Positions 422 through 20,130 of a stretch of 64,000 nt of DNA are shown here, piece after piece. The position numbers were made by a program, and so were the translations under genes. Source of the stretch: a bacterium (GTDB lineage Bacteria; Bdellovibrionota_C; UBA2361; CALJRW01); contig JANNBC010000028.1 of the NCBI GenBank assembly GCA_031385045.1, positions 1-64,000 on the forward strand, written 5' to 3'. Position 1 is the stretch's first letter, and each line of letters starts with the position of its first letter. The notes under the pieces were generated by a model. That model was not told the DNA's origin, searched no databases, and saw nothing but the letters and a program-made list of their open reading frames with translations.

Positions 422-1891
422 ATGTTTGCAATTGATATTCTACCTTTAATTGATTCTGAACACCATTTGGCGGAAAGATTTTTTCGTGGCCAACCGGCAG
501 TCCTAATTGGTAGTGAACCTGAATGCCAACTACAGCATCCCTTATTACAAAATTTGAATTTCCAAGTATTAATTCAAAAATTAGCTGGAAGTCAATTCGA
601 ATGTCGACAGATTTTCAATGACCCTCAGAATAAATCAGGATTTCAAGATATTTATGATTCTACTGCCAAGCTTAATCTTGGAGCTGTAAAGATTTTAATC
701 ACAAGTATTGACGCAGATTTATTAGTTAAGGAAAACGAAGCTCCTGATCAAGCAGGGTATCGTCTACTAAGACAAGCAGTAACTTCCCAGTTAACAACCT
801 TTCCAGCTTTAGAAATTAATAAGCCTTGGAAAGCGGTTGTCTCTTTTAATCAAGAACAAGTTCTAACAGTGGGCCGTGCTGACTATCATCATTTGGTTAT
901 TGAGCAGTTTGATGTCTCCTCTGATCATGCCAGATTTGGTTTTGCCAATAATAAGTACTGGGTAGAAGATTTGGGTTCTACTAATGGAACTTTTTTAAAT
1001 AATCAGCAGGTATCTGGTAAGATTTTTTTTGAGCCCGGGGAGTCTGTCTTGTTAGGGGCTAGCACAAAAATTACTGGAGTTAAAAAATCAGTTAAGATTG
1101 AGCCAGTGGTAGTTCCTGAGCCAGAGTTAATAAAACCCGAATTGCCAGTGGAAGCAATGGAGCTTAAACCTGCGATCGCTGATCTGCCAACCAATGAGTC
1201 CTTAGATTATTCTCCAACCGAAGAATTATCTCCCGCAAATGTCCAAGAATTATTAGTTGATGTTCGTTATCCAATATTGCTGGCAGTTAATAAAATTGCT
1301 CGTCCCGGAAAATTAATTTTAAAGCTTGGGCAAACCGTTCTAATAGGTCGTGATTCTAATTCCGATCTTTGGTTGGGAGCTCCCTATGTTTCACGAGAGC
1401 ATAATCGGATTACCTTGCAAGCTGATGGATCAATTAAGATTCAAGATCTCAGCTCTAACGGAACTGCCTATTCGGCTGGAATGATTCCTCCAGGGGGAGA
1501 ATTGCTGATTAGTCAGGAGTCTGAGATTTTACATTATGGTTCGGGACTAGCGGTTGCAATTTGTTTTAATCAAGATGATGAAGAAAAATTTATTGCGGCA
1601 GGAGGTCGAGCAGATGCTTTTCTTGATTCCGCGGCTATTGCACCGAGAGAGCAAGTTGCATCATTATTAGCAGCTCCAAAGTCAAACCGCGAAGGACTCC
1701 TTGCTAAAGAGGAAACTTATCGCCCGCTTCGCGCTAATAGTTCTGGTTTACAGGGTGGGGGGATTGTTAGAAAGATTCTTATTAGATTTTTAGGCTTTGA
1801 TTTAAAGCGAAAGATCTTTATTTGTTGTTTAAGCTTGTTAGTAATCGCAATTTTTGTCTTATTAATATCGATAATCTTAACGTTTTTGTAA
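422..1891 (+). CDS. Multi-FHA-domain protein with C-terminal TM anchor
   Basis: Two clear FHA motifs (VGRAD..VSSDHA..EDLGSTNGT; IGRDS..VSREH..QDLSSNGT), a possible degenerate N-terminal FHA (LIGSEPEC), a Pro/Glu linker and a terminal hydrophobic helix. Confidence 0.85.
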   Translation: MFAIDILPLIDSEHHLAERFFRGQPAVLIGSEPECQLQHPLLQNLNFQVLIQKLAGSQFECRQIFNDPQNKSGFQDIYDSTAKLNLGAVKILITSIDADLLVKENEAPDQAGYRLLRQAVTSQLTTFPALEINKPWKAVVSFNQEQVLTVGRADYHHLVIEQFDVSSDHARFGFANNKYWVEDLGSTNGTFLNNQQVSGKIFFEPGESVLLGASTKITGVKKSVKIEPVVVPEPELIKPELPVEAMELKPAIADLPTNESLDYSPTEELSPANVQELLVDVRYPILLAVNKIARPGKLILKLGQTVLIGRDSNSDLWLGAPYVSREHNRITLQADGSIKIQDLSSNGTAYSAGMIPPGGELLISQESEILHYGSGLAVAICFNQDDEEKFIAAGGRADAFLDSAAIAPREQVASLLAAPKSNREGLLAKEETYRPLRANSSGLQGGGIVRKILIRFLGFDLKRKIFICCLSLLVIAIFVLLISIILTFL

Positions 1892-2131: not shown

Positions 2132-3169
2132 ATGTCAGCAGATAGTACGGAATTAACTTTTATTAGATGTTCATCTTGTCGCAGTCTTGTACCAGCAATG
2201 TCTACTCGTTGTAGGATGTGTGGTGCTGATTTACAGGCTAAGAAAGCTGCACCAGTTCCGGAGCCAGTTGCGCCAAGTGAAAAAATTGAAATCAAGAAGC
2301 CAGTAATGCTGGCAACGACTGAGCTAGATCCGCTTAATGAATTCTTAAGCGAAGATGATCAGTTTGACGATGTTGATATTGCAGATGATCAATTAGCGAC
2401 TCTTGATCAGGAAATCCCGGAAGAGCTTCATGCAGAAAGTACATCTGAATATACCGAGGATTTCGAAGATGATTTTGATGAAGAACAAGCAATTAAAGAA
2501 TTAGATAGTTTGTTGGAAGAATTAAATGCTACTTCGGCATCTTCTTATGTGGCACCAGTTGAACCAGTCATTGTGCCTGAAGTAAAACCGATAGAAGCAA
2601 AACCGATGGCAGTGCCTAAGCCTGAGATTAAGGTCGAGCCAGTCGTTGTCGCTCCTAAGGTTGTTATTCCTAAAGTTGTCACTCCGGTGAATGAACAGAA
2701 TTTAATTAACAAATCCCAACCAATAGTTCCTAGTAAGGTGGAGATTAAAGAGGAGAAAGTTATGGAGAAAGAAGTAAGAGCAGTAGAAAACAAGGTAACT
2801 TCAATTAAGTCAGCTTCCCTTAAGCAGACTGAAAAGCAGACCGCCCTTTTTGGTTGGTTTGTGAGTTACCAAGAAGCAGAAGGCGTTTCCAGAGAGATTC
2901 GCGAAGGTAAATTCTTTGTGACAGCAAAGAGTCTTAAGCCTAACGATCTGATTATTGAAGATGAGAGTGTTTCAACACCCCATGCCATGATTACTGTTAG
3001 TCATGAACTAGGTTTCCAAATTCAAGATTTAATGAGTGAGCATGGACTATATATCAAGAAACATGGCACTAAGAAGTATGAAGTGATTGATGATATTGAA
3101 GTTGTTGAAAATGGTGATTGGATTAGATTCGGTAATGTTGAGTTTATGGTTGTGATTATGCCAGTTTGA
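2132..3169 (+). CDS. Zn-ribbon / acidic and Pro-rich linker / C-terminal FHA protein
   Basis: N-terminal CSSC..CRMC, D/E-rich then P/V/K-rich linker, C-terminal FHA-like domain (GWFV..VSTPHA..QDLMSEHG..GDWIRFG). Confidence 0.8.
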   Translation: MSADSTELTFIRCSSCRSLVPAMSTRCRMCGADLQAKKAAPVPEPVAPSEKIEIKKPVMLATTELDPLNEFLSEDDQFDDVDIADDQLATLDQEIPEELHAESTSEYTEDFEDDFDEEQAIKELDSLLEELNATSASSYVAPVEPVIVPEVKPIEAKPMAVPKPEIKVEPVVVAPKVVIPKVVTPVNEQNLINKSQPIVPSKVEIKEEKVMEKEVRAVENKVTSIKSASLKQTEKQTALFGWFVSYQEAEGVSREIREGKFFVTAKSLKPNDLIIEDESVSTPHAMITVSHELGFQIQDLMSEHGLYIKKHGTKKYEVIDDIEVVENGDWIRFGNVEFMVVIMPV

Positions 3170-3319: not shown

Positions 3320-4162
3320 ATGAAAATAGTTAAACTCACTTTTTTATTATTAATCTTAATCTGCACAAGTAGTTGTCGCGATGTTCAAGTCGCTGAAAAT
3401 ATCAATCAATATCAAGCCCATCAGATTATCAATAAACTAAGTTCTTCGGGGATTGACTCCAAATATTTTGCCAATAGCAATGGTAAGTCTTATTCTGTCT
3501 CAGTTGCTCAGCGAGATTATTTACCAGCTGTTAGTATTATTGCCGTCTCTGGTATTCTTCCCAAAGTTGATTCTGATTTTAAAGAATTAACCGAACCCAA
3601 GGGGTTTTTATCTAGTAATAAATCTTTTGACCTCTTAAGATTAGACCGAGCTATTGCAGTTGAGCTAGAAGATGCTTTGCTTGGTGTCCCAAGTATTACG
3701 AATGCTAAAGTTGTTGTGCGACTCAATAGTTTACCAGCTAATCAAGTCCCCTCTGTTTCGATTGTTGCTGGTACTCGTGATCAGCAAGCGGATCTTGGTT
3801 ATATTACAGATTTAGTTAAGAATTCTATTCCAGGTATTCAGGAGGAGCATATTAAATTGATTTTAGAGCGAGTCCCAGATGCTGGTTCTGATTTTTCAAT
3901 GATTGGTACAATTCAAGAAAAGGGGAAGATGTTGGCAATTCCGCTAGTCCCATTTTTAATTTGGCAAGTTCCTTCGGGGGTTGAGCTAGAATTAGCTTGG
4001 GCTTCAATCGCCATTTTGGTGATTGCTCTGCTTGTTGGATACTTTTTGGCAACAATTTTCCGGAAACCTAAATTAAGGGAGCGGAATTCACTAAGCTTAC
4101 CAGAGTCTAACTCTTTAGCTTTGGGACTTCCAAAAGATTTAAATGAGGAGGATTATCGATGA
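3320..4162 (+). CDS. sctJ: T3SS inner-membrane ring lipoprotein SctJ (YscJ/PrgK-like), divergent
   Basis: Lipoprotein signal ending TSSC, YscJ-like segments (QAHQIINKLSSSGI; RAIAVELEDALLGVPSITNAKVVV), C-terminal TM followed by basic residues. Confidence 0.8.
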   Translation: MKIVKLTFLLLILICTSSCRDVQVAENINQYQAHQIINKLSSSGIDSKYFANSNGKSYSVSVAQRDYLPAVSIIAVSGILPKVDSDFKELTEPKGFLSSNKSFDLLRLDRAIAVELEDALLGVPSITNAKVVVRLNSLPANQVPSVSIVAGTRDQQADLGYITDLVKNSIPGIQEEHIKLILERVPDAGSDFSMIGTIQEKGKMLAIPLVPFLIWQVPSGVELELAWASIAILVIALLVGYFLATIFRKPKLRERNSLSLPESNSLALGLPKDLNEEDYR

Positions 4163-4404
4163 GCCAAGAGAATCAAGGTAATATCTTCAATAAATTAGAG
4201 CCAGAGCAACAAGCACTGGTGGCAATAGCTGTTTTATTAGATGGTTTTGATAGTCCTTTTTTTCTAGGAGATGATTTTTCGCATCAAGATCAATTACGTC
4301 TAGCCGCTGAGGAGATTGTGAAGGATGCTCCCCAGCAACGCTTGCCCTACGTCGCAACCTTACTTCGTCGAGCATTAAATGAGCTGAGGAACCAAGATGA
4401 GTAA
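4159..4404 (+). CDS. Small helical protein at the SctK/FliG position
   Basis: 81 aa, RBS gaggag, ATGA overlap with sctJ, overlaps the next gene; weak likeness to the FliG N-terminus. Confidence 0.55.
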   Translation: MSQENQGNIFNKLEPEQQALVAIAVLLDGFDSPFFLGDDFSHQDQLRLAAEEIVKDAPQQRLPYVATLLRRALNELRNQDE

Positions 4405-5392
4405 TGAATGGCAATTAGCGGAAGAAGTTGAATCACTAGATCCTAAGATTATTAAATATGGTATTGGGTTTCTTAACTCTCGTCCACAAAATTGGATTCC
4501 TAATTTCTCTTCCTTTTGGACTCCGTTATTGGAATTATTAAACTTTGAAGTTGCTGTTTTAGATATACAACCAACCTTTGATTTTCCAATAAGTGGGAAT
4601 AGCTTGTGGTTGGGTGCTTTTGAAAATAATAAAATAGGGGTTAGTTGTGAGCCATTTGTCGCCAAGTATTTAGCAAGTCTTTTTATTACAGATATTGATT
4701 CTCTGACTAGTAAGGTTCTAGAAGATTATTTAGCAAGGCGCTTAATGCAGTCGTTAGTTGCTTCTTGGACAGGCCCATCGCTTAGTCACTTTCAGTATTT
4801 CGGTGCAAGTTCAATGAAAGACTTTGAACCTAGTGCCGGCATTAAAATTACTATGTCTGTTAATGGTCGCCAAGTTACACTCTGGTTATTGATCGAGGAA
4901 CTTTTACTAAAGAAATTAGATAATTTGTGGAGAAGACAGACCACAACATTTAATATTAAGAAATTAGAATCCCGAAGATATCAATTAGTACTCTATAGCC
5001 AACAAATTCAACTGGAGGAGTTAGAAACCTCATTGGTTATTGGTAATAAGATTTATCTAGCTGGGTTAGATCCAAGGTTTGTTACTATGCGTGATATTGT
5101 TAATGACTCGACTTGGAAAATAAAGCTCTATAGTAGTAGTGATCAGCTAGTCATGAAGATCCTTGAGTCTAACGTTCCTTATCAGCTAGACGTAAGAGAC
5201 CTATTAATGCGGGTCACATTTCCAGAAATTACACTTAGTACTGAGCAGTTACAGTTAAATACTAATGAATCCTTTATCTCTACAGGACTTGCTCCGGGTA
5301 CAGAATTATTGATTAAAGTCTCCGATGAGACCGTTGCCCAGGCAAAGCTCGGAAAGGATGCTAATGGTTATTTTGCTCAAATCCTAAATTAA
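4397..5392 (+). CDS. sctQ: SctQ/FliM-like C-ring/sorting-platform protein, divergent
   Basis: FliM-middle-like helix (VLEDYLARRLMQSLVASW) and two degenerate SpoA repeats (QIQLEELETSLVIGNKI; EITLSTEQL..GTELLIKVSDETVAQAKL..GYFAQI); lies directly upstream of sctR. Confidence 0.65.
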   Translation: MSNEWQLAEEVESLDPKIIKYGIGFLNSRPQNWIPNFSSFWTPLLELLNFEVAVLDIQPTFDFPISGNSLWLGAFENNKIGVSCEPFVAKYLASLFITDIDSLTSKVLEDYLARRLMQSLVASWTGPSLSHFQYFGASSMKDFEPSAGIKITMSVNGRQVTLWLLIEELLLKKLDNLWRRQTTTFNIKKLESRRYQLVLYSQQIQLEELETSLVIGNKIYLAGLDPRFVTMRDIVNDSTWKIKLYSSSDQLVMKILESNVPYQLDVRDLLMRVTFPEITLSTEQLQLNTNESFISTGLAPGTELLIKVSDETVAQAKLGKDANGYFAQILN

Positions 5393-5453
5393 TCCATTTC
5401 GCCTATAAAATTCCCCCTAGAAGCCAAGGCTTATCTCCGTTATACTTCAGCCT

Positions 5454-6026
5454 ATGGTAGAATTAGTAATTATAATGTTGGTTTCCAGTGCCTTTGTTAA
5501 ATTGGTCACAACACTCAGTATTTTTCAGTATGGATTAGGTCTTAAGAACTTCTCCTTTAGTGTTGTAGTATTCTTACTTAGCTTAGTCTTGACATTATTT
5601 GTGATGCAGCCAACTTGGGATCAGCTTGGCGGTTGGCAGGGAATTAGTCAGGCCAGTCCAGAAAAGATTGCGAGTTTTCAAACTCAAATTGACCCTTTTG
5701 TTCAAAAGCATAGTGATCCAGAAAGCCTTAGCCGTTTAAAGGATATTTATCAAAAAAGTCATCCAGAAGTTTCTTTAGATATCATTCCATGGTCAGTCAA
5801 AATTACCGCATTTATGACTACGGAGTTAAAAGAGGCCTTTTACATTGGATTACTACTAATTATTCCTTTTGTTTTTTTAGATCTGTTAGTTGTTAACATT
5901 TTGATGGCTTTAAACATTACTCAAATTTCAGCTCTAACAGTTGCTTTACCATTTAAGTTGTTAATCTTTTATCTATTTGACGGTTGGCAACTATTAACCG
6001 AAAAATTATTAAGTTTTTATTATTAA
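5454..6026 (+). CDS. sctR: T3SS export gate protein SctR/FliP, divergent and N-terminally shortened
   Basis: SAFVKL..GLG..LTLFVMQP; AF..ELKEAFYIG..PFVFLDLLV.NILMAL; LPFKLLIF..DGW. Confidence 0.9.
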   Translation: MVELVIIMLVSSAFVKLVTTLSIFQYGLGLKNFSFSVVVFLLSLVLTLFVMQPTWDQLGGWQGISQASPEKIASFQTQIDPFVQKHSDPESLSRLKDIYQKSHPEVSLDIIPWSVKITAFMTTELKEAFYIGLLLIIPFVFLDLLVVNILMALNITQISALTVALPFKLLIFYLFDGWQLLTEKLLSFYY

Positions 6027-6030
6027 TATT

Positions 6031-6279
6031 ATGTCTCCAGACTTATTAATTGAATCAATCCTTTACGCAGTTCGCTTATTTTTATTAGTTACAATTCCGT
6101 TATTGTTAGCTTTGACGCTGGCCGGGACATTTTCGGGAATGTTACAAGCGATTACGGGGATTAGGGAAAGCCTGATTAACTATTTTGTAAAGTTAATTGC
6201 CTTGTTTTCTATCTTATATTTCTTTTTACCTAGTCTGATTCAAAGTCTGCAAGAAATATTTAATAATTACTATTTATGA
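6031..6279 (+). CDS. sctS: T3SS export gate protein SctS/FliQ
   Basis: 82 aa, two hydrophobic helices, IPLL..G..GMLQAITGIRE..FVKLIA. Confidence 0.8.
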   Translation: MSPDLLIESILYAVRLFLLVTIPLLLALTLAGTFSGMLQAITGIRESLINYFVKLIALFSILYFFLPSLIQSLQEIFNNYYL

Positions 6280-6851
6280 TTTCATGTGTGCTTGCTGGTT
6301 TCCTGTTTTATCTCTGGGGACGTTCTGGAGTTTTAACCGGCATTTTATTTCTTCTTGGGCTTTTAATTTATTTCACGCAAGAACTTGGACTTAACTTAGG
6401 TTTTGTTTCCGAAATTCTTTTAGTTTGTTCAGTCTTAGCCTTGCCACTTAGCTTTTATATTGCGGGATCTTTATTAGATAATTTCATAGCAGAGAGGTTT
6501 TCTAAGCAATTACCATTAGCATTAATTTTTTTACTTTTTGGATTATACATAATTATAGAGCAGGGGATATTCTTTGATCAGTTAGAATATTCAGTTAAAT
6601 TGATTAGCAATCCAAGCTCACTAAGCCCTTTGTTTTTATTATTAGAAATACTCACTAAAACAATTATGACAACAACCGGTGTTGTGCTCACAATAATGTT
6701 TGTTGCTTTATGTTTTATCTTGCCGTTTGCCTGGTTTGCAAAAAATTCGCGATTAAATCTGAGTTGGGCAGTTCCTAGTATCACTCTTGTCTTGGTTTTA
6801 TTTTTAATCTCCAGCAGTTATCAATTAATTTTAACAAAGCTATTTGCTTAG
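6276..6851 (+). CDS. sctT: T3SS export gate protein SctT/FliR, shortened
   Basis: Polytopic membrane protein with IAGSLLDN matching the AG..ID motif; sits between sctS and sctU; ATGA overlap. Confidence 0.6.
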   Translation: MISCVLAGFLFYLWGRSGVLTGILFLLGLLIYFTQELGLNLGFVSEILLVCSVLALPLSFYIAGSLLDNFIAERFSKQLPLALIFLLFGLYIIIEQGIFFDQLEYSVKLISNPSSLSPLFLLLEILTKTIMTTTGVVLTIMFVALCFILPFAWFAKNSRLNLSWAVPSITLVLVLFLISSSYQLILTKLFA

Positions 6852-7526
6852 ATGAGTTTTAGTTTTCCAAGTCAAAAAAAATTGGCCATGCTTCGAAAAA
6901 ATGGGGTAGTGCCAGCTGCTCCTTGGATTGGACGCCTATTGGTTCTTTTTGGTTTAGGAGCTTATTTTTATTTCTCAGCTGAAAAATTACTTGCCCAGCT
7001 ATTAGCTTATTACCAAGGCCTTTTTGCTTCTGTAGTTCAACCAGAAACTTACCAAGTCTTATTTTTTACCCTGATTAAGGATTTTATTATAGTCCCAGTA
7101 TTACTTTGTTTGGTACTGATCTTTTTGGGTGTTTTAATTCAGACTAGATTTTACTTTAGTTTTGATAACCTTCGACTAGATTTTACAAGATTTGGACTTA
7201 CTGCTCAGTTGCAGACAATTCAACCTATTAAAAAGATCTTATTTTTCTTAGCACTACCCATATTGCTAGCGATTGGATTTATTTTGTCACTTCGCTGGGC
7301 GGATGTATTTATGGCTAGTGTCTCTTGGGTTGCGACTGAGCGACGAACAGCTTATTTGGAGTTGTTTAAATCAATTGCTAGTCAAATAGCTGTTGTTGCG
7401 TTATTATTAATGATCTTAGCAGTGTTACTTAATTGGTTTTATTTCCGATTGGAGCACAGTCAGAATGATCATGACTCGCTTGATGCTGATTCAGCAAGCC
7501 ATAATTCGATTGATAGTATTAGATAA
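6852..7526 (+). CDS. sctU: SctU/FlhB transmembrane domain only (no cytoplasmic NPTH domain)
   Basis: PSQKKLAMLRKNGVV resembles PTPKKLRDARKKGQV, LIQTRFYFSFDNLRLDF resembles LQ.GFLFS.EAL.PDF; four TMs; ends at 224 aa. Confidence 0.75.
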   Translation: MSFSFPSQKKLAMLRKNGVVPAAPWIGRLLVLFGLGAYFYFSAEKLLAQLLAYYQGLFASVVQPETYQVLFFTLIKDFIIVPVLLCLVLIFLGVLIQTRFYFSFDNLRLDFTRFGLTAQLQTIQPIKKILFFLALPILLAIGFILSLRWADVFMASVSWVATERRTAYLELFKSIASQIAVVALLLMILAVLLNWFYFRLEHSQNDHDSLDADSASHNSIDSIR

Positions 7527-7768
7527 TGCCATATCCTAAAAAAGATTTAATTTCTCAAGCACCCTTATTCCTTCTATTGCCGGAGCGACGTTCTTTAGAT
7601 GGTTTTGAGAAGTATCTTTCGGCCTTTTATTTAAGACTAGAGAAACTGAACCAGTTAGAGCAAGAGGGAAGCGATCTATCTACTGAAAATCAAGCCGAGT
7701 TAGCTATGTTAAGGCAAGTTGTTGATTGGTTGACGCTTCATTCCGAAATTGAAGGAAACAGGAATTAA
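7526..7768 (+). CDS. Small hypothetical protein (possible SctX-like)
   Basis: TAATG coupling with sctU; amphipathic C-terminal helix ELAMLRQVVDWL; precedes the TPR gene. Confidence 0.5.
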   Translation: MPYPKKDLISQAPLFLLLPERRSLDGFEKYLSAFYLRLEKLNQLEQEGSDLSTENQAELAMLRQVVDWLTLHSEIEGNRN

Positions 7769-7774
7769 AAACTC

Positions 7775-8203
7775 ATGAGCTTATTAGATTCAAGATTAAG
7801 TAGTTACTCGGAAGAAGAACTCGACTTATTATATTCTTTAGGGGTTTTTTATCTTGAGGCGGGACATTATCGTTCGTCCGAAATGATTTTCCAAGGACTA
7901 ACTGTTGTGGCCCCCGGCTTTTCTGATTCTTGGCTCGCTGCCGCAGCAACATTTTTTATGTTAGGTAACTTTGATCAAGCTAGGAGATATGCACATCAAG
8001 CAATGCGTTTAACTCCTCATGCCATTCAGGTTCAATTACTATATGTAACAATTTTACTTTCTCAAAATGAACTTTCCGAGGCAGGTACTTTGTTAGGGGA
8101 AATTAAAGAACAGATTGATACCAAATTAATTCAAAATCCCGATCAGATTCGTTATTTTCGTGCCCAGTTAGCCCGCTTTGAATTTGCTCAAAATCGTGGA
8201 TAG
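7775..8203 (+). CDS. TPR chaperone, SycD/LcrH- or SctY-like
   Basis: LDLLYSLGVFYLEAGHY..IFQGLTVVAP..WLA; about three TPR repeats. Confidence 0.75.
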   Translation: MSLLDSRLSSYSEEELDLLYSLGVFYLEAGHYRSSEMIFQGLTVVAPGFSDSWLAAAATFFMLGNFDQARRYAHQAMRLTPHAIQVQLLYVTILLSQNELSEAGTLLGEIKEQIDTKLIQNPDQIRYFRAQLARFEFAQNRG

Positions 8204-8206
8204 GCG

Positions 8207-8554
8207 TTACTCTTTTTTTGACTCCTTCTCCGGTAATTCTTGCTCTTCCAGTAATGCCGCGTCAATTGTCTGTTTCACTGCTAATTCAATTGCTTGTCGT
8301 TGAGCTTCGGGTATCTTTGAATTAGAGAATAATTTTTCAGCCTCTTGTTCTACCATCTGTAATAACTCAGCGCGCTCCTGATAAGACATCTCTCTAGTTG
8401 GCATGCGACTGGCTCCCGACACTCCGGTCACGGCACCAACTTTTGATGTTTTACTGACCTGAGAAATCGCCTCAGATTTACGAACGGAATTTAGAGCATC
8501 AGTCTTATTAATACCTTTAATTTTTTTATCGTTTGAATCAATTCCATCAACCAT
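8207..8554 (-). CDS. Hypothetical protein downstream of a sigma factor (candidate anti-sigma or secreted substrate)
   Basis: RBS ggagag; S/T/K/G-rich, probably disordered N-terminus and helical C-terminus. Confidence 0.6.
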   Translation of the reverse strand: MVDGIDSNDKKIKGINKTDALNSVRKSEAISQVSKTSKVGAVTGVSGASRMPTREMSYQERAELLQMVEQEAEKLFSNSKIPEAQRQAIELAVKQTIDAALLEEQELPEKESKKE

Positions 8555-8589: not shown

Positions 8590-9375
8590 TTAGTATTGCC
8601 CTGAAAATTCTGAGACCTTTTTCGTAAAGATTCCAAAATCTTCTTTATGAGCCATGACAACATTGGCATCTTTTAGCCCCGGTCGAATCCTTGGTGAGTC
8701 AAGCTCCTTTCCGGTGGAAACACTTTTCTGAAGGTATTCCATGATTACTTTATGTTCTCTAATTACATTAAGTTCGTCAGTGTTCCATTCTGTGGCAACG
8801 CCTCGTAATGATAATCCTTCCCAATATACTTTCCAGACAAGAAGTTGGTGAAGTGGTTCTAGATCAGAAAGATTAATAATTAATTGTTTGAACTCTGTAG
8901 CTTCTTCTGGATTAGAATCTTGAATGCCGTGTTTAGTAGAAATTAAACAAGCACTAATTAATAATTGTTGGATACCAACACGAACACCTTGTTCAGAATC
9001 ATCTTCGCTCGGCAAAATCCCCGATCTAATTTGAGGATATAATTCAAATAACTCGGCAGAAATTGCTCGCGCCAAGCGTTCTGTCCTTTTAGAATTACGA
9101 CTATCTTTCTCCCATGATTTACTATTACGAGCAGCTTCAGTAGAGGCTTCATGAATTCTTCTGCGGGCATAACTTTTAAAGGGCACTCCTAATTTGGGAT
9201 CAAATCTGCGAGCGCAAAAAATTAAAGCTTCAAATGCAGCCCCATCTAGACCGTCATCTTGCCAGTGTAAATTCCATCCTCGGGCTACAGATTTGGCAAT
9301 TTTTTCAGCCCAAATTTGATGCTCTAAGACTAACTCATTAGCTTCATCCATGCTTAAAATCGTTGTTTCGGTCAT
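8590..9375 (-). CDS. FliA/sigma28-like RNA polymerase sigma factor, divergent
   Basis: Region 2 (LDGAAFEALIFCARRFDPKLGVPFKSYARRRI) and region 4 (LEPLHQLLVWKVYWEGLSLRGVA). Confidence 0.8.
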   Translation of the reverse strand: MTETTILSMDEANELVLEHQIWAEKIAKSVARGWNLHWQDDGLDGAAFEALIFCARRFDPKLGVPFKSYARRRIHEASTEAARNSKSWEKDSRNSKRTERLARAISAELFELYPQIRSGILPSEDDSEQGVRVGIQQLLISACLISTKHGIQDSNPEEATEFKQLIINLSDLEPLHQLLVWKVYWEGLSLRGVATEWNTDELNVIREHKVIMEYLQKSVSTGKELDSPRIRPGLKDANVVMAHKEDFGIFTKKVSEFSGQY

Positions 9376-9586: not shown

Positions 9587-10372
9587 ATGTTTGTTATGAG
9601 TAATTGTCGTTCAGAAGCCGAAAAAACTAAAGGTAAAATCTATGATTTTGCAAAAATAGTTGAGCGCAAGGAGTCCATAGCGACCCACCTCAGTATCCAT
9701 GAAAAAAACGGTTTAATTATGAAAAATAGGATACAGGGCCGTAAATTAGCCTGTAGTATGCTTAGAAAATGGAACTGCCGTTTAGATTTAGAAGAAGTTG
9801 ATAGTATTGTTGATTTGTCGCTATGCGAAGCAGTGAAGTATTTTGACCCAGCAAAAGGGGTAAATTTCTTAACTTTTTTATTCTATCACCTGCGGGGAAA
9901 TTTAATTCGAACAATTAAAATCCAAGCTAATCAAACTGCAATTCCTTTGGAATTTACAGATGAAAACATGGAGAGTGGATATATTGGTCATGAGCGAATT
10001 AATACTGCCGATGCCTTTGAAACTTTTGGTACTGTACAAAAGTCTCCCGATCAACAGTTTCAAGAAGGTCAGTTTTTTGAATTAACGAAGCAAGCTTGTG
10101 AAAAATTGTCTGATCTAGAACGAGAAATTATTCGGAATGTTTTTATCCACGAAGAGCAAGTTACGCAATTAGCGCAAGATTTAAATTATAGTCGTTGTCA
10201 TATTTCTAGATTAAAAACTGCCACGATTAATAAGCTTCGCTCCGAGATTGAAAAAATTACTGGAGAAAAAATTTCCATCTCTGAAGGTCTGGAATCTCCG
10301 CGTCGAGCTTTAGATACTCGTCATCGGGTTCGTAGCTTGAAAGTTAAGAAGGTTAAGAAGATAGCGGCTTAG
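9587..10372 (+). CDS. Sigma-70 family (FliA/SigF-like group 3) sigma factor
   Basis: LSLCEAVKYFDPAKGVNFLTFLFYHLRG; LSDLEREII..VTQLAQDLNYSRCHISRL (helix-turn-helix). Confidence 0.85.
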   Translation: MFVMSNCRSEAEKTKGKIYDFAKIVERKESIATHLSIHEKNGLIMKNRIQGRKLACSMLRKWNCRLDLEEVDSIVDLSLCEAVKYFDPAKGVNFLTFLFYHLRGNLIRTIKIQANQTAIPLEFTDENMESGYIGHERINTADAFETFGTVQKSPDQQFQEGQFFELTKQACEKLSDLEREIIRNVFIHEEQVTQLAQDLNYSRCHISRLKTATINKLRSEIEKITGEKISISEGLESPRRALDTRHRVRSLKVKKVKKIAA

Positions 10373-15177: not shown

Positions 15178-17166
15178 ATGTTAGATGGTAAAATAGAAAT
15201 TAGTCCCGTCCACCAAGATTACTTAGCTGCATCGCTTGGTTTTATAGAAAAGTATTATCCAGATTTTAGTCATCAACAAAAGATTTTTTTAGTAATAGCT
15301 TGCATGGCACTGGCATTTCCTGAGCGGCGAGCAGAGCTGGCTGGCCAGCCAGATGCTTATTTAGATTTTGCCAAGGATCGTATTCAGCAGGTCCTGGTTC
15401 GTGCTCAAGCAGAAGTTGTTAAGGTAGACGAACAGCTTCTCAATAATTACTTAGCAAATTTTCAAGAAATCTTTAATGCCCGTGGACAATATTTAGATCG
15501 CAGGGAAATTATTAGAGAGTTAGTAGAAGTTGGTGTTTTAAAAGAGCAAAATGGGCAATTCTTAATTCTTGGAAAATATGCTGATGGAATAGTTCATTTT
15601 GGAGACTGTGACTTTCTTTTAGAGGCTGGAAACTTAATTACTGATATCAATAATCTTAGATCTTCAAAAATACTGAGTGTTGATTCTGATGAAAAAACTT
15701 CTAGGTTTGTGATGAAGTTTGAGCACGGAATATCGCCTGTAATTGATGGCCAGATTATTCACCAAGTAGGCCAAGTTTTTCCGGATTATTTTGTTAGTTT
15801 AGATTTTATTCATCAACACCAAATAGTTGGGATTTATCTTAATGATCAGCGATACTTTTTATTCTCTGGTGAGAAGACGCTGTTTGAGTTTGATTCTAAG
15901 CCTTATGACTTTAGTTTTTCTGAAAACTTTAGTGAGCCTACAGGATATGTACTGACTGAAAAATCAGCCTATTATTTTGTACTAGGCGAACTAAGGTTTC
16001 AAACGTCATTAGCTGACTTTAGTATTCGTACAATCAATTTCTCCTTTTGTATTTCGGAAGTGGGTAATATTGAGACTTATTTTTGGGGAACTTTAGAGAA
16101 AGAGGAAGCAACAATCCCTTTTTTACTTGCTCCAATTGAAGAGCTGACTGGCTTTGGTGCAATCAAAGATACCATCCAGTTTTTGCATTATCAGAGAGTT
16201 GGTTTTGGTAAATATCAAACAGAATCTGGGATCGTCTATTCCTTATCTGGAAAATCAATGCAAACTTTGCGTGGAGAACTAATTACAGAATTTCTACCAA
16301 ATCCAGATTTCGAACAAAGCGGTTTGGCATTGATTAGGACAACAAACTGTAGTTTTCCAATGGTCCAAGGGCAGATCTATACTAGTTTTGAGAATGCTCG
16401 CATTGAACAGTTTATTCCGCTAGAGACAAGTTTTCAGTATCGTGAGTTAACTGGTTGGCTGATAACAAATCTGGGAGTGAAATTAGTTATCGAGGGTGAG
16501 ACCTTTAATTTACCAGATGGTTTAAGCTTTTGTTACGACCCAGAAACTCCACCACAGATTTTTCTTGATCATTTCAAGCAAATCTATTTTGTAGGTCCGG
16601 TCATGAATGATCTCGGAGAGATTAATCAGTTAGTCTTAATGGCTGGGCGTGAAATTCAAATTATAGTGAGCGATCAAGGTCTCGATAGTCAGACGGTTAG
16701 TGGCTATCGTAATCTTTATGTGAATGGACATGGTGATTTTCAATGTGTCTTAGAGTTCGGTAACGCTGAAAGAATTTTTTCGGGAGAGAGAAAAGGAGAC
16801 ACTTATGAGGTTTCGCTTGGAAAATTTGATGCCGCTAAGTTGACTTTGGTTGGATTTAATATCTTTGGTGAGTATATTGCCGATGGCAAGCTCCACCCAT
16901 TTTTAGGTCAAGAAATGCTTGCGAGAATGGTAGGTGTTGAGGTTGATCAAGTAGCAATTATTGATGAGAATACGCACGTGACACTGTTTCATTCCAAGGC
17001 TCATTCCCAAGGTTTGGTTATCGGGGACAAAATTCATTTTGAAGGTGAGCAATTTCGAGAACTAGAACTTTCTAGTTCTGAAAAGGGAGATACGACTAGG
17101 GTTGATTTTGGTTTTTGCAGGAAGAATATCAAGCATCAATACGGTTTTACGTTATATTATAGTTAG
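15178..17166 (+). CDS. Hypothetical protein with degenerate beta-rich repeats
   Basis: 662-aa ORF with recurring P/L-V-I-x-G-Q/E units. Confidence 0.65.
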   Translation: MLDGKIEISPVHQDYLAASLGFIEKYYPDFSHQQKIFLVIACMALAFPERRAELAGQPDAYLDFAKDRIQQVLVRAQAEVVKVDEQLLNNYLANFQEIFNARGQYLDRREIIRELVEVGVLKEQNGQFLILGKYADGIVHFGDCDFLLEAGNLITDINNLRSSKILSVDSDEKTSRFVMKFEHGISPVIDGQIIHQVGQVFPDYFVSLDFIHQHQIVGIYLNDQRYFLFSGEKTLFEFDSKPYDFSFSENFSEPTGYVLTEKSAYYFVLGELRFQTSLADFSIRTINFSFCISEVGNIETYFWGTLEKEEATIPFLLAPIEELTGFGAIKDTIQFLHYQRVGFGKYQTESGIVYSLSGKSMQTLRGELITEFLPNPDFEQSGLALIRTTNCSFPMVQGQIYTSFENARIEQFIPLETSFQYRELTGWLITNLGVKLVIEGETFNLPDGLSFCYDPETPPQIFLDHFKQIYFVGPVMNDLGEINQLVLMAGREIQIIVSDQGLDSQTVSGYRNLYVNGHGDFQCVLEFGNAERIFSGERKGDTYEVSLGKFDAAKLTLVGFNIFGEYIADGKLHPFLGQEMLARMVGVEVDQVAIIDENTHVTLFHSKAHSQGLVIGDKIHFEGEQFRELELSSSEKGDTTRVDFGFCRKNIKHQYGFTLYYS

Positions 17167-18731
17167 TCTGGTGAAAATCCTCGACGCATCGTGTTTTCGG
17201 AAATTACTTTTGGCACAACAAATTGTTTTAGATAATCTGGTCCACCAGCCTTAGAGCCAATCCCTGAAAGCTTAAAGCCACCAAATGGTTGGCGTCCAAC
17301 AACTGCACCTGTGCACGCACGATTAATATAAAAATTACCAACGCGAATTTCTTCACTTACTTTTTGAATGCTGCTTGGACTACGAGAAAATAATCCAGCA
17401 GTTAATCCAAATTTTGTATCATTTGCCAAGGCAATAGCTTCTGCTAAGTTTTTAACATTTTTAATTGCTAAGATCGGACCAAATATTTCCTGTTGCCAGA
17501 GTTCTGAATTAGTATCTAAACATTCAAAAATAGTGATCGGAACAAAAGTTCCTTGACTTGGTACTAAGCTTTCAAATTTTAGGGAATGGATTTTTTTATC
17601 ACGTTCGATAATTTGTAGTAGTCTTGCTTGAGCCTCTTCATCAATTACTGGACCAACAAATATTTCTGATTGATAGCTAGGTCCAATTAAAAGATCTTTA
17701 GTTGCTGGAATTAGTCTTTCCATTAAAGCTTGATAGGCAGAGCCCACAACAATAACTCGCGAGCAGGCGGAACATTTTTGTCCCGAATAGGCGAAGGCTG
17801 AGTAAAGAATTCCTTTAATTGCTTCATCTAAGTCGGCATCTTCATCTACAATGATGGCATTTTTACCGCCAAGTTCAAGGATGCTTCGCTTAATAAAAGT
17901 TTGTTCTGGTTTGATTTCAGAGCATGCTGATAATATTTTTTGGCCAACTGCTAAGGATCCAGTAAAGCAAATCAAGTTCACATCTTTTGATTCTAGGAGT
18001 AGAGGACCTAATTCTTCTCCCGCGCCTGGTAAAAAGGCAATCGCCTCTTTCGGTAGGCCAGCTTGCAGCAGGATTTCTACTAATTTTTGAGCGATTAAAG
18101 ATGATTGTTCGGCCGGTTTTAAAATTGCTACATTTCCTGCAACCAAGGAGGCTACTAACATTCCGCAGGGGATTGCCAGAGGAAAATTCCAAGGACTAAT
18201 TACTACGGAGAGACCTAATGGCTCATAGTGGTAGGTATTATTTTCTCCAGGAAGTATTTGTGTTGGGAATGATTGTAATGATTCCACAGCAAGTTCCGCG
18301 TAATAGTTACAAAAATCAATTGCTTCTACTACATCTCGATCGGCCTCATACCAATTTTTTCCTGACTCACGAATGATTAAAGCCGATAGTTCCATTTGGT
18401 TTGCTTGCATTAGGCTCGCGGTGCGCCGTAGGATATTAGCCCGTTCCTCAAGCTTGGTTTTTTTCCAAGTTGGAAAATAATTTAATAAATCTTGGATTGT
18501 TGATTTGACAAGTTCTAGATCTGCAAAATGTACTTTAGAAATTATTTGATTTTTATAGTTACAGTCTAGACGGTTATAGATGTTTTGACAGGAGATTTTT
18601 TGGCCATTTACGATTGGTCTTACTGTGACTCCTGACTCAATTAGTTGATTTACTTGGGATAGGATTTCCGCAAATTTAATTAAATTGTCTGGAATTGTAA
18701 AATCAATTGGGGCGCAATTTTTAAAGTTCAT
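17163..18731 (-). CDS. Delta-1-pyrroline-5-carboxylate (glutamate semialdehyde) dehydrogenase, PutA C-terminal half
   Basis: ISPWNFPLAI, FTGS, ELGGKN, GQKCSAC, EIFGP, QPFGG, GSKAGGPDYL, ENTMRRGF. Confidence 0.95.
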   Translation of the reverse strand: MNFKNCAPIDFTIPDNLIKFAEILSQVNQLIESGVTVRPIVNGQKISCQNIYNRLDCNYKNQIISKVHFADLELVKSTIQDLLNYFPTWKKTKLEERANILRRTASLMQANQMELSALIIRESGKNWYEADRDVVEAIDFCNYYAELAVESLQSFPTQILPGENNTYHYEPLGLSVVISPWNFPLAIPCGMLVASLVAGNVAILKPAEQSSLIAQKLVEILLQAGLPKEAIAFLPGAGEELGPLLLESKDVNLICFTGSLAVGQKILSACSEIKPEQTFIKRSILELGGKNAIIVDEDADLDEAIKGILYSAFAYSGQKCSACSRVIVVGSAYQALMERLIPATKDLLIGPSYQSEIFVGPVIDEEAQARLLQIIERDKKIHSLKFESLVPSQGTFVPITIFECLDTNSELWQQEIFGPILAIKNVKNLAEAIALANDTKFGLTAGLFSRSPSSIQKVSEEIRVGNFYINRACTGAVVGRQPFGGFKLSGIGSKAGGPDYLKQFVVPKVISENTMRRGFSPD

Positions 18732-18741
18732 GAAATAAGTC

Positions 18742-20130
18742 TTAATAAATAGTTAGTTTATTTAATGTCAAAGCCGGATCTTCTAATAGATGATCAACAT
18801 TTTTTTGGTCATAGAAAGTATGTCTTAAAAAAGAATCATTAGAAGTATTTTCTAAAAGGCGACGGACTAAATATCCCATGCCAGGTAAAATTTCTCCGAG
18901 TGGGACATATAGCCGAACTAAATATCCTTTAGAGGTGAAGGCTAGGGCGATTGGTTGCGCCATCCCATAAAGCATTTGTAATTCAAAATGGTTTTTGTTG
19001 ATACCCTTTTCCGCAGCATAACAACAAACATGAGATAGTGAACGAACATTGTGGGAGCCAAACGCTGGGTAGCAGTACTCAATGTTATCGAGTAAAATGC
19101 AACTGAGTCGTTCGTAATTAAGATCACTTTCTGCCTTTCTCTGGAATAATGGGCTTTGCCAATAGTTTTGGGCAGCACCAGCATTTTCTTGATCCCAATA
19201 GGCTCCTTTAACCAGGCGAATCGCAATCGGGCGATGATTTATTTTAGCCCAGTTTAAAAGATCTAAAAGTAGCTCTTCCGAATGCTTGGCATATGCTTGC
19301 AACACTACTCCTGGATACTTTAGTTCTGCAAGCTCTGGGTCAGAGAAGACCCTTTTAAATGTTTCATAGATTACTGGGTTGTGGGCAGTGTCCTCAGCAT
19401 CAATATAAATTCCCGATCCCAGCTCAAGTGCTTTTAAGGCAATCTGTTTTAATCGCCCAGAGAGAACTTCTACAGATTTATTAAAGTTTAGAATACTTGT
19501 TTGGGAGTAGAGGGCAGTGAGCTTGACGCTAATGTTACAGTTTTGTTTTAGTCCTAAATGTCCCGGATCTGTTTTAAACTTTTTGTTCCACTTGGGTGCT
19601 TCTTTAGCAATCACAGTTAATGCTTCAAGATAGCGTTGTAGGTAAGCCTGACTTTCTTGATCACTAACGGAATATTCTCCTAGTAAGTCCACAGTGTATG
19701 TTAGTCCCTCAGCGTGCAATCTTTTTAGTGCTGGGATGGTATCGTGTGGATTTTCTCCAGCAATAAAAACTTTAGACATTTGTTTAATTGATGTTTTAAC
19801 AGCAAGCTTACTGATGACTGCTGGGATGTAGGAGTAGCTAGGAAGTTTGAAGAAATATTTCAGAAGCGGATTAATTTTACCGGCAGATTCACTCAAATAT
19901 TCACTAATATGCTTTCCGACAGAGTCAGCTGTTTTTAGTGTGGGCAAGACGTCCACTAAGCGAAAAAGGCTATTTTTAAAGTCGGGCTCAGTTAAAGTCC
20001 AGGCTAGTAATTTAGAATTAATGAAGTTTTTCTGGAAGGCAGAGGGCTGGGAGTGGCCAATCAATTGAAAGATCTCTCGGCCAAAATTAAGAATCTTATC
20101 GCTTGGTTCAGGGGTAGTTTGTTGGTTCAT
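18742..20130 (-). CDS. Proline dehydrogenase, PutA N-terminal half
   Basis: FRLVDVLP, TVDLLGE, ISVKLTAL, RLVKGAYWD, ELQMLYGM, YLVRRLLEN. Confidence 0.95.
   Translation of the reverse strand: MNQQTTPEPSDKILNFGREIFQLIGHSQPSAFQKNFINSKLLAWTLTEPDFKNSLFRLVDVLPTLKTADSVGKHISEYLSESAGKINPLLKYFFKLPSYSYIPAVISKLAVKTSIKQMSKVFIAGENPHDTIPALKRLHAEGLTYTVDLLGEYSVSDQESQAYLQRYLEALTVIAKEAPKWNKKFKTDPGHLGLKQNCNISVKLTALYSQTSILNFNKSVEVLSGRLKQIALKALELGSGIYIDAEDTAHNPVIYETFKRVFSDPELAELKYPGVVLQAYAKHSEELLLDLLNWAKINHRPIAIRLVKGAYWDQENAGAAQNYWQSPLFQRKAESDLNYERLSCILLDNIEYCYPAFGSHNVRSLSHVCCYAAEKGINKNHFELQMLYGMAQPIALAFTSKGYLVRLYVPLGEILPGMGYLVRRLLENTSNDSFLRHTFYDQKNVDHLLEDPALTLNKLTIY

Follow-up and report, generated by a model that had tools for sequence, protein, structure and literature searches.

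The window, the whole 64,000-nucleotide stretch of DNA analysed here, carries a cluster of type III secretion genes that extends from a double-FHA membrane protein to a divergently transcribed pair of sigma-70-family factors (Table 1). The cluster is referred to as set A, and its gene order is identical across the phylum as far as the loci extend. The sigma-70-family pair ends the cluster in most relatives, and its two members show 96% and 94% identity to those of the congener (genome G008). A sigma gene also precedes the sctJ gene of a second set, set B, on contig C38 of the same genome.

Table 1. Features of the set A cluster in the window
Feature	Position	Strand	Basis and remarks
Double-FHA membrane protein, SctD-like position	422..1891	+	Pfam FHA 2e-23, Yop-YscD_cpl 1e-12; conserved as the first gene of the cluster
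Zinc-ribbon and FHA protein	2132..3169	+	Pfam FHA 2e-6; syntenic
SctJ inner-ring lipoprotein	3320..4162	+	Pfam YscJ_FliF 1e-8; two SctJ in the genome in total
Conserved 81-aa protein, no known family	4159..4404	+	Orthologues in 41 loci; LDG invariant
Divergent SctQ, C-ring protein	4397..5392	+	Family profile: YscQ-C 6e-6, FliN/FliY, also Myxococcota genes at the SctQ position
SctR-A, degenerate paralogue, 190 aa, short N-terminus	5454..6026	+	Pfam FliP 2.5e-36
Former Q2-belt loop of SctR-A, GLGLKNFSF	5532..5558	+	Family consensus Gly-rich, GLGLxGxxFG
Former M-gasket of SctR-A, I-T-Q	5916..5924	+	Family consensus (V/I)-T-Q
SctS-A without QxQxQ belt (6145-6171), with P23, Q39 and E46-K54	6031..6279	+	Pfam Bac_export_3 4e-9
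SctT-A, shortened, 191 aa	6276..6851	+	Plug loop apparently cut, near 6471-6515
SctU-A, membrane domain only	6852..7526	+	Pfam Bac_export_2, positions 7-207 of 335
Conserved 80-aa protein, no known family	7526..7768	+	Orthologues in 31 loci; Atlas leads only <0.9
TPR protein	7775..8203	+	Pfam TPR families; syntenic
Conserved 115-aa protein	8207..8554	-	Strand by translation; syntenic
Sigma-70-family factor 1	8590..9375	-	Pfam Sigma70_r2 0.007, below cut-off; 96% identity in the congener
Sigma-70-family factor 2	9587..10372	+	Pfam Sigma70_r2 and r4; syntenic

Two small conserved families without a database match, the 81-aa and 80-aa proteins, flank sctQ and sctU across the phylum. The 81-aa protein gave no match in Pfam, in a PDB profile search or in the Atlas; gene order alone would place it at the SctK position, and no support was found for a FliG-N-like character. 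Pfam and the PDB profile search gave no usable match for the 80-aa protein, which was rejected as a split SctU C-domain of set A because the SctU-C profile does not match it. SctQ has no Pfam match as a single sequence and was assigned through its family profile. The TPR protein may resemble type III chaperones. None of the cluster genes in the window matched the needle protein SctF or a translocon in Pfam, and no gene for a substrate, a rod or a needle could be recognised in the A loci. Elsewhere in the window, at 17163-20130, two adjacent separate ORFs are presumably proline dehydrogenase-like and aldehyde dehydrogenase-like.

Sealing and guiding motifs of the export gate

SctR-A does not carry the methionine gasket of the type III export gate, and neither the Q1 belt (QxQxQ in SctS) nor the Q2 belt (QQ in SctR), as defined in the available text of PMC10114087, occurs in the window. 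The initial annotation had reported LMALNITQIS in SctR at 5901-5930, GLGLKNFSF in place of the Gln-Gln belt loop and QAITGIRES in SctS, and all three are found at these places, the last with 0 of 3 belt glutamines. On solved FliP/SpaP chains, ITQ aligns gap-free onto the MMM loop and GLGLKNFSF onto the QQxP loop, while QAITGIRES aligns gap-free onto the belt loop of solved FliQ/SpaQ chains. Therefore, a proper alignment to the FliP and FliQ families does not recover the canonical motifs, and misalignment as the cause of their absence is ruled out by these structure-chain alignments and by a Foldseek match. SctR-A is a member of the SctR/FliP family by its Pfam match and by its fold, as the predicted model (pLDDT 93) reaches a Foldseek TM of 0.83 to FliP.

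The N-terminus of SctR is short; the initial annotation had described the usual first segment as lacking. An in-frame TAG lies at 5418-5420, and no ATG, GTG or TTG lies between it and the ATG at 5454. Compared with eight injectisome SctR proteins, about 13-20 residues are missing at the N-terminus (conserved Phe at 14 versus 27-34), and the median among SctR-A orthologues is 6 residues longer. In a second study, a contig covering 5240-6527 has zero letter differences from the window, so this stretch is not an assembly error, and SctR-A of the congener begins at the same position; on these two grounds, neither misassembly nor a frameshift explains the SctR start.

The gate genes are less intact than the initial annotation assumed, since SctT is shortened and SctU ends before the NPTH site. 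SctT-A has no Pfam match as a single sequence, and 5 of 42 orthologues match Pfam Bac_export_1 (FliR family). The best structural matches of its model are FliR (Z 11.1, rmsd 3.8, 147 aligned residues) and Spa29 (Z 10.1), followed by the next at 7.7, which identifies the SctT fold; because the protein is helical, the match was read together with synteny and the Pfam matches of the orthologues. The plug is an 8-residue loop in the model and a gap of 10-13 residues in two weak, low-probability profile alignments, and it is probably shortened. SctU-A lacks both the NPTH site and the cytoplasmic domain. NPTH is absent from 12 of 12 A-type SctU proteins inspected, and the SctU-C profile finds the sole SctU-C of the genome at the B locus. 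SctV-A lies on contig C7 and was assigned to set A by contiguity with the A cluster in eight relatives; it matches Pfam at 2e-157, keeps the FHIPEP motifs RFxLD and DGAMKFVQGD intact and is 92% identical to its counterpart in the congener.

Conservation of the A genes across the phylum

Of the 124 genomes in the phylum, 69 were used to read A loci; they were picked from top matches and are not exhaustive. The A counts given in this section exclude two rows (P0150 and L104) that are B-type by motif and tree. The substitutions are common to the phylum. The SctR-A loop is without Met in 63 of the 69 genomes and QQ is found in none (0/69), while the third loop position is occupied by Gln 36 times and by Asn 10 times. 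SctS-A has no belt Gln in 46/69. The salt bridge of SctS-A (D/E46-K/R54) is kept in 67/69 and Pro23 in 61/69.

The same picture was obtained from the best 150 of 1.84 billion cluster representatives, from which one B-type row was removed to leave 149 that are A-type by score and motif, without context. Their loop is without Met in 138/149, begins with a hydrophobic residue in 146/149 and has Gln or Asn at its third position in 109/149, with Gln alone in 97/149. Both exposed positions are polar in 119/149, and a conserved Gly-rich loop replaces the Q2 belt. One unpaired charge is present in 14 of these loops and a charge pair in 7. Among SctR-A orthologues of other orders, 5/17 have an LER loop, which is the charge-paired pattern of the motile MER suppressor described in the available text of PMC8239009. 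Conservation of the loop positions is moderate, at ranks 75, 77 and 119 of 192 columns, and the packing residues (P, D, K, F, G and W, in the helical core) are conserved at 94-99%.

SctR-A and SctS-A are under purifying selection. The dN/dS of SctR-A is 0.034-0.175 in 9 of 11 pairs, the other 2 being saturated, and that of SctS-A is 0.11-0.40; the pairs are not independent. Identity to the congener is 84% for SctR-A and 78% for SctS-A, compared with 67% for SctR-B and 58% for SctS-B. It is 53% for SctT-A and 50% for SctU-A, and the mean column identity of SctT is 20%. SctR, SctT and SctU of set A shorten progressively from other orders toward this genus. A change private to this genome or relaxed selection was ruled out, as the substitutions are shared across the phylum and dN/dS is below 1. 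Most of the 91 genomes of the order carry three FliP-family genes, namely flagellar, B and A. A scan of named genomes with the A alignment gave one A-type locus among the matches listed, the others being flagellar or from Myxococcota.

The canonical paralogue, the missing parts and the Tad pilus operon

The genome carries two each of SctR, SctJ, SctV and SctU, and a second, canonical sctRS copy is present. The sctRSTU genes of set B, on contig C13, have MMM, QQxP and QxQxQ in canonical form. Among 22 B copies examined, the third Met, the Q2 Gln and QxQxQ are each found in 22/22. Like A, the B paralogue (contigs C13 and C38) is needle-less, scattered over several loci and present in the same genomes; unlike A, it has the canonical Met and Gln motifs, a separately encoded SctU-C and an SctI-like gene, and the SctI-like profile in this genome matches the B locus only. 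The sctU-B gene (C13:15475-19571) ends just before the NPTH position, and its C-domain is a separate 86-aa gene that sits behind a PAS/GAF hybrid histidine kinase. A separate SctU C-domain gene is also present in the B loci of G007, G008, G013, G023 and G032.

Several type III parts have no match in this genome, which is 94.9% complete in 61 contigs. The search for SctN gave only F1 alpha/beta-level and Rho-level matches, and for SctL no FliH-family match was found, nor any FliN-family match. A flagellar FliP-level match is likewise absent from the genome, and since A does not group with FliP in the tree, a flagellar origin of A was rejected. A type III ATPase match, flagellar FliI counted, is present in 71 of 73 high-quality genomes, the exceptions being this genome and its congener G008. 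In both genomes of this genus, two type III export sets are retained; neither a type III ATPase nor a flagellar FliP gave a match. The non-flagellated relatives G007 and G009 have a single unlinked sctL-sctN pair; in relatives this pair stands alone, often near murJ-like genes. The A machine probably had its own ATPase earlier, because three type III ATPase matches each are present in 11 genomes from other orders. Of the two secretins in the genome, one belongs to a type II secretion operon and the other has STN/N0 domains; neither is near type III genes.

SctV-A is part of a Tad pilus operon on contig C7, which encodes a PP2C phosphatase, an FHA protein, a Ser/Thr kinase, CpaE, CpaB, the TadA ATPase, TadB, TadC, SctV and a pseudokinase; its Tad parts were identified by Pfam (T2SSE, T2SSF twice, RcpC and AAA_31). 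The Tad/Kil core is present in the genome with TadA/CpaF, TadB, TadC, CpaB, CpaE and Flp pilin. Adjacency of tadC and sctV-A was found in 11/11 genomes examined, and sctV-A is fixed behind tadC even where the gate genes lie elsewhere. Among the 13 relatives for which the stretch upstream of the A cluster was fetched, the Tad-sctV-pseudokinase operon continues directly into the A cluster in 8 (G095, G097, G099, G101, G108, G112, G114 and G019, the last from this order) and does not in 5. No secretin, RcpA/CpaC or other, lies near the C7 Tad operon, and no Tad-type secretin was identified in the genome. Three Flp pilins above the cut-off are scattered away from the Tad operon (C13:32987-33175, C39:26894-27025 and C10:13664-13795), and a second cpaB-like gene is present on C52. 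The initial annotation had the motifs right; it noticed neither the link to the Tad operon nor the absence of the ATPase. Those two features and the canonical paralogue form the deciding context.

Possible functions of the altered gate

The replaced motifs had been taken to suggest that the gate no longer threads unfolded proteins canonically. The motif loss is real, but alone it is not proof of stopped threading, because Met-free natural gates exist and published belt and plug mutants secrete. The gasket loop is LSQ in HrcR of Ralstonia solanacearum and LNQ in SctR of Mycetohabitans and Burkholderia, and their SctS has one belt Gln. The Ralstonia system injects effectors, and a Met-free gasket thus has a working precedent. 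Nothing relevant to the Met-free gasket of Hrp2-type SctR was found in the main-text literature covered. Flagellar FliP of this order has the loop MIT in 29/29, and the FliQ proteins have one belt Gln or none. A Ser instead of Gly precedes MIT in 29/29 of these FliP proteins, and the FliQ proteins have Asp46-Lys54 in 29/29, which fits a reported link between a polar loop and Asp46. MMM is found in 63/67 other flagellar FliP proteins sampled; L009 (G088:C118), a FliP unlike the other flagellar FliP of the order, was left out of the flagellar group. L009 has an MMM loop and is possibly from a foreign contig in that genome. Myxococcota gates have MHM, MQT or MQS loops.

Experiments in other bacteria show what such changes do. 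According to the available text of PMC8239009, the methionine gasket is proposed as a universal membrane seal during type III export. In Salmonella FliP, that text reports, gates with polar residues at positions 2-3 or with plug deletions let ions leak yet export, single charges block and nearly abolish motility, and the charge pair MER rescues; more methionines mean more export, and of random triplets only 9% are functional. The accessible part of PMC7943601 describes the Q2 belt as ancillary and the Q1 belt as tolerating Ser but not Ala or Gly triples. In EPEC, single and double Q1 mutants secrete whereas P23A and K54A do not (PMC8726614, available text). FliP-M210A favours the open state (PMC8983047, available text). 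What is particular to A is that the gasket, both belts, the switch domain and, probably, the full plug are all lost together.

The closest known arrangement is T3SS* of Myxococcus xanthus (MXAN_2434-2464) with its Kil system. Like A, T3SS* has an export apparatus, SctJ, SctQ and TPR chaperone-like genes; it is without a needle or a secretin of its own and partners an FHA-rich Tad system, as A probably does, as described in the available text of PMC12075869, PMC10433427 and PMC8460266; further sources on the pair, seen in the same form, are PMC10849154, PMC10469934 and PMC11509652. The T3SS* core of SctD, SctJ, SctQ and SctRSTUV, without needle or secretin in the cluster, is found here as well. 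A hallmark of the Myxococcus system is that prey lysis at contact sites requires it. In Myxococcus, T3SS* and Kil lie in separate clusters, whereas sctV-A is inside the Tad operon. T3SS* has SctN, SctL and SctI, which are missing from the A system, and its relatives keep QQ together with MHM or MQT/MQS loops and a full SctU, whereas the A gate lost all lining motifs. In the SctR tree, a quick search with long branches, A branches on its own, separate from both Myxococcota groups (SH-aLRT 99). In the SctV tree, equally a quick search with long branches, A is unplaced at the non-flagellar base and B is sister to a Myxococcota group; this tree is without Myxococcota 'long' or Polyangiaceae SctV, and the 'long' and 'short' labels were inferred from gene content. 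A is not a strict T3SS* member because SctN, SctL and SctI are missing and its SctR has its own branch. Judged from its genes, it would be a new variant of the Myxococcus Kil and T3SS* theme with a predicted function, and the best guess, by analogy, is that the A machine works like that pair. The available text of Abby and Rocha (PMC3459982) confines the needle-less system to Cystobacterineae, and that of a 2024 review likewise confines its co-occurrence with Tad. No description of the A gate variant or of a fused Tad-sctV operon was found in the literature covered, of which subscription journals form little part.

The Hrp2-type gate (HrcR/HrcS of Ralstonia, SctR of Burkholderia and Mycetohabitans) shares with A the Met-free hydrophobic-polar-Gln loop and a SctS loop reduced to one Gln, but keeps QQxPPN; since Hrp2 SctR falls among the injectisomes in the tree, the likeness is convergent. 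It belongs to a complete machine with needle or pilus, secretin and ATPase. Flagellar FliPQR and SPI-1 SpaPQR share with A the SctR and SctT folds, the RSTU order and the SctS salt bridge, and differ in having QQ and QxQxQ belts, a full plug and an SctU with NPTH and C-domain.

The conserved A copy and its Tad link point to a repurposed export machine, not a broken one. The options listed in the initial annotation, a scaffold, a leaky pore or different cargo, remain the right set. The reading put forward here, at somewhat under an even chance, is that the A gate is unsealed and hydrophilic and exports proteins within a needle-less machine that works together with the Tad pilus. The window encodes the core (SctJ, SctQ, SctR, SctS, SctT and the membrane part of SctU) of one of the two needle-less non-flagellar machines of the phylum, and this machine belongs with the Tad operon that ends in tadB-tadC-sctV-pseudokinase. 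Fold and assembly residues are kept, while the gasket is turned into a polar ring (hydrophobic-Thr-Gln), both Gln belts are gone, the SctT plug is probably shortened and the SctU switch domain is lost. The direct observations here are the substitutions and their conservation under purifying selection, together with the fold and the linkage of the genes. The complex would still assemble and form a low-barrier hydrophilic channel, through which a limited set of proteins may cross the inner membrane to the periplasm, with the proton motive force acting through the intact SctV ring. These proteins would be handed to the Tad pilus, or act beside it, upon contact with another cell. Leak may be limited if the gate is assembled or opened only on demand, controlled by the kinase, phosphatase and FHA proteins that the operon encodes. 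The machine of this genus would do without a type III ATPase.

An unsealed gate is suggested by a replacement that is conserved and under purifying selection and is not drift, and would fit the retained SctS salt bridge and P23, the intact SctV-A motifs, the Met-free Hrp2 gates, the leaky but exporting Salmonella FliP mutants, the LER loops in other orders, the 11 genomes with three ATPase matches and the Tad linkage. Against it are the lack of an identified substrate, rod or needle gene, the joint loss of all channel-lining elements, unlike in Hrp2, the scaling of export with methionines, and 14 loops of 149 with unpaired charges versus 7 with paired ones. SctT-A and SctU-A are also fast-evolving, SctN and SctL are missing, no Tad-type secretin was identified, and linkage is not physical contact. 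In the main alternative, a serious one that is nevertheless doubtful, the gate transports nothing and is kept only to nucleate the rings of SctV, SctJ and SctQ, which would give the Tad pilus a base, a motor coupling or a signalling platform. Substrate-contacting residues would then be free to change, which agrees with the joint loss of gasket, both belts, SctU-C and, probably, the full plug beside packing residues conserved at 94-99%, and with the modest ranks of the loop columns and the unpaired loop charges. The missing ATPase in both genomes of the genus, when only 2 of 73 high-quality genomes are without a match, the A loci without a rod-like gene and the fixed place of sctV-A behind tadC agree with a scaffold too. 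The preference for Gln at the third loop position (97/149), the conserved new Gly-rich loop, the kept charged motifs of SctV and the retained TPR chaperone-like gene do not, and injectisomes with Met-free gates exist. The evidence from charges, loop conservation and precedents is mixed, and the weight is therefore split between the unsealed channel and the scaffold.

Other explanations carry much less weight. It is improbable that A and B subunits co-assemble, or that A modulates the B gate and forms no channel alone: most genomes contain both sets (two or three FliP-family matches) and most genomes of the order have a single non-flagellar ATPase, but each set owns SctJ, SctT, SctU and SctV, SctU-C is found in B only, and the sets lie in separate operons with separate sigma factors. 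Equally slight is the chance of a regulated pore for ions or small molecules, whose polar, unplugged lumen was selected for leak in signalling or in nutrient uptake from an attached cell. Thr and Gln at positions 2-3 and a cut plug are the strongest ion-leak changes in Salmonella (PMC8239009, available text), and 119/149 loops are polar at both exposed positions. The full SctV, SctQ and chaperone-like genes are retained, however, and a constitutive leak is costly to fitness, with no precedent found in the available text of the literature. Least probable of all is a decaying duplicate under relaxed selection. SctR, SctT and SctU become shorter step by step between other orders and this genus; this, the long branches and the loss of the ATPase in the genus would fit decay, but the frames are open, a single gene order extends across the phylum and dN/dS is far below 1, which largely refutes it. 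Low dN/dS together with SctR-A and SctS-A being better conserved between congeners than the canonical copies (84/78% versus 67/58%) therefore makes decay unlikely.

A hybrid envelope machine is rather unlikely. In it, the gate without sealing and guiding elements, and in this genus without its ATPase, would be the inner-membrane base of the Tad pilus, and delivery to a contacted cell would be powered by the Tad ATPase or solely by the proton motive force. If true, it would be a single-operon form of the Kil and T3SS* pairing and a minimal type III translocase found in nature. Throughout the phylum, selection maintains a gate that has no gasket, no belts, no switch domain and probably no full plug, and the canonical paralogue alongside serves as an internal control; two questions therefore become testable with short natural sequences. 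The first is which gate residues serve export and which serve sealing. The second is how a needle-less core and a Tad pilus work together. In the genus without an ATPase match, export may naturally rely on the proton motive force only, or the type III core may have turned into a scaffold.
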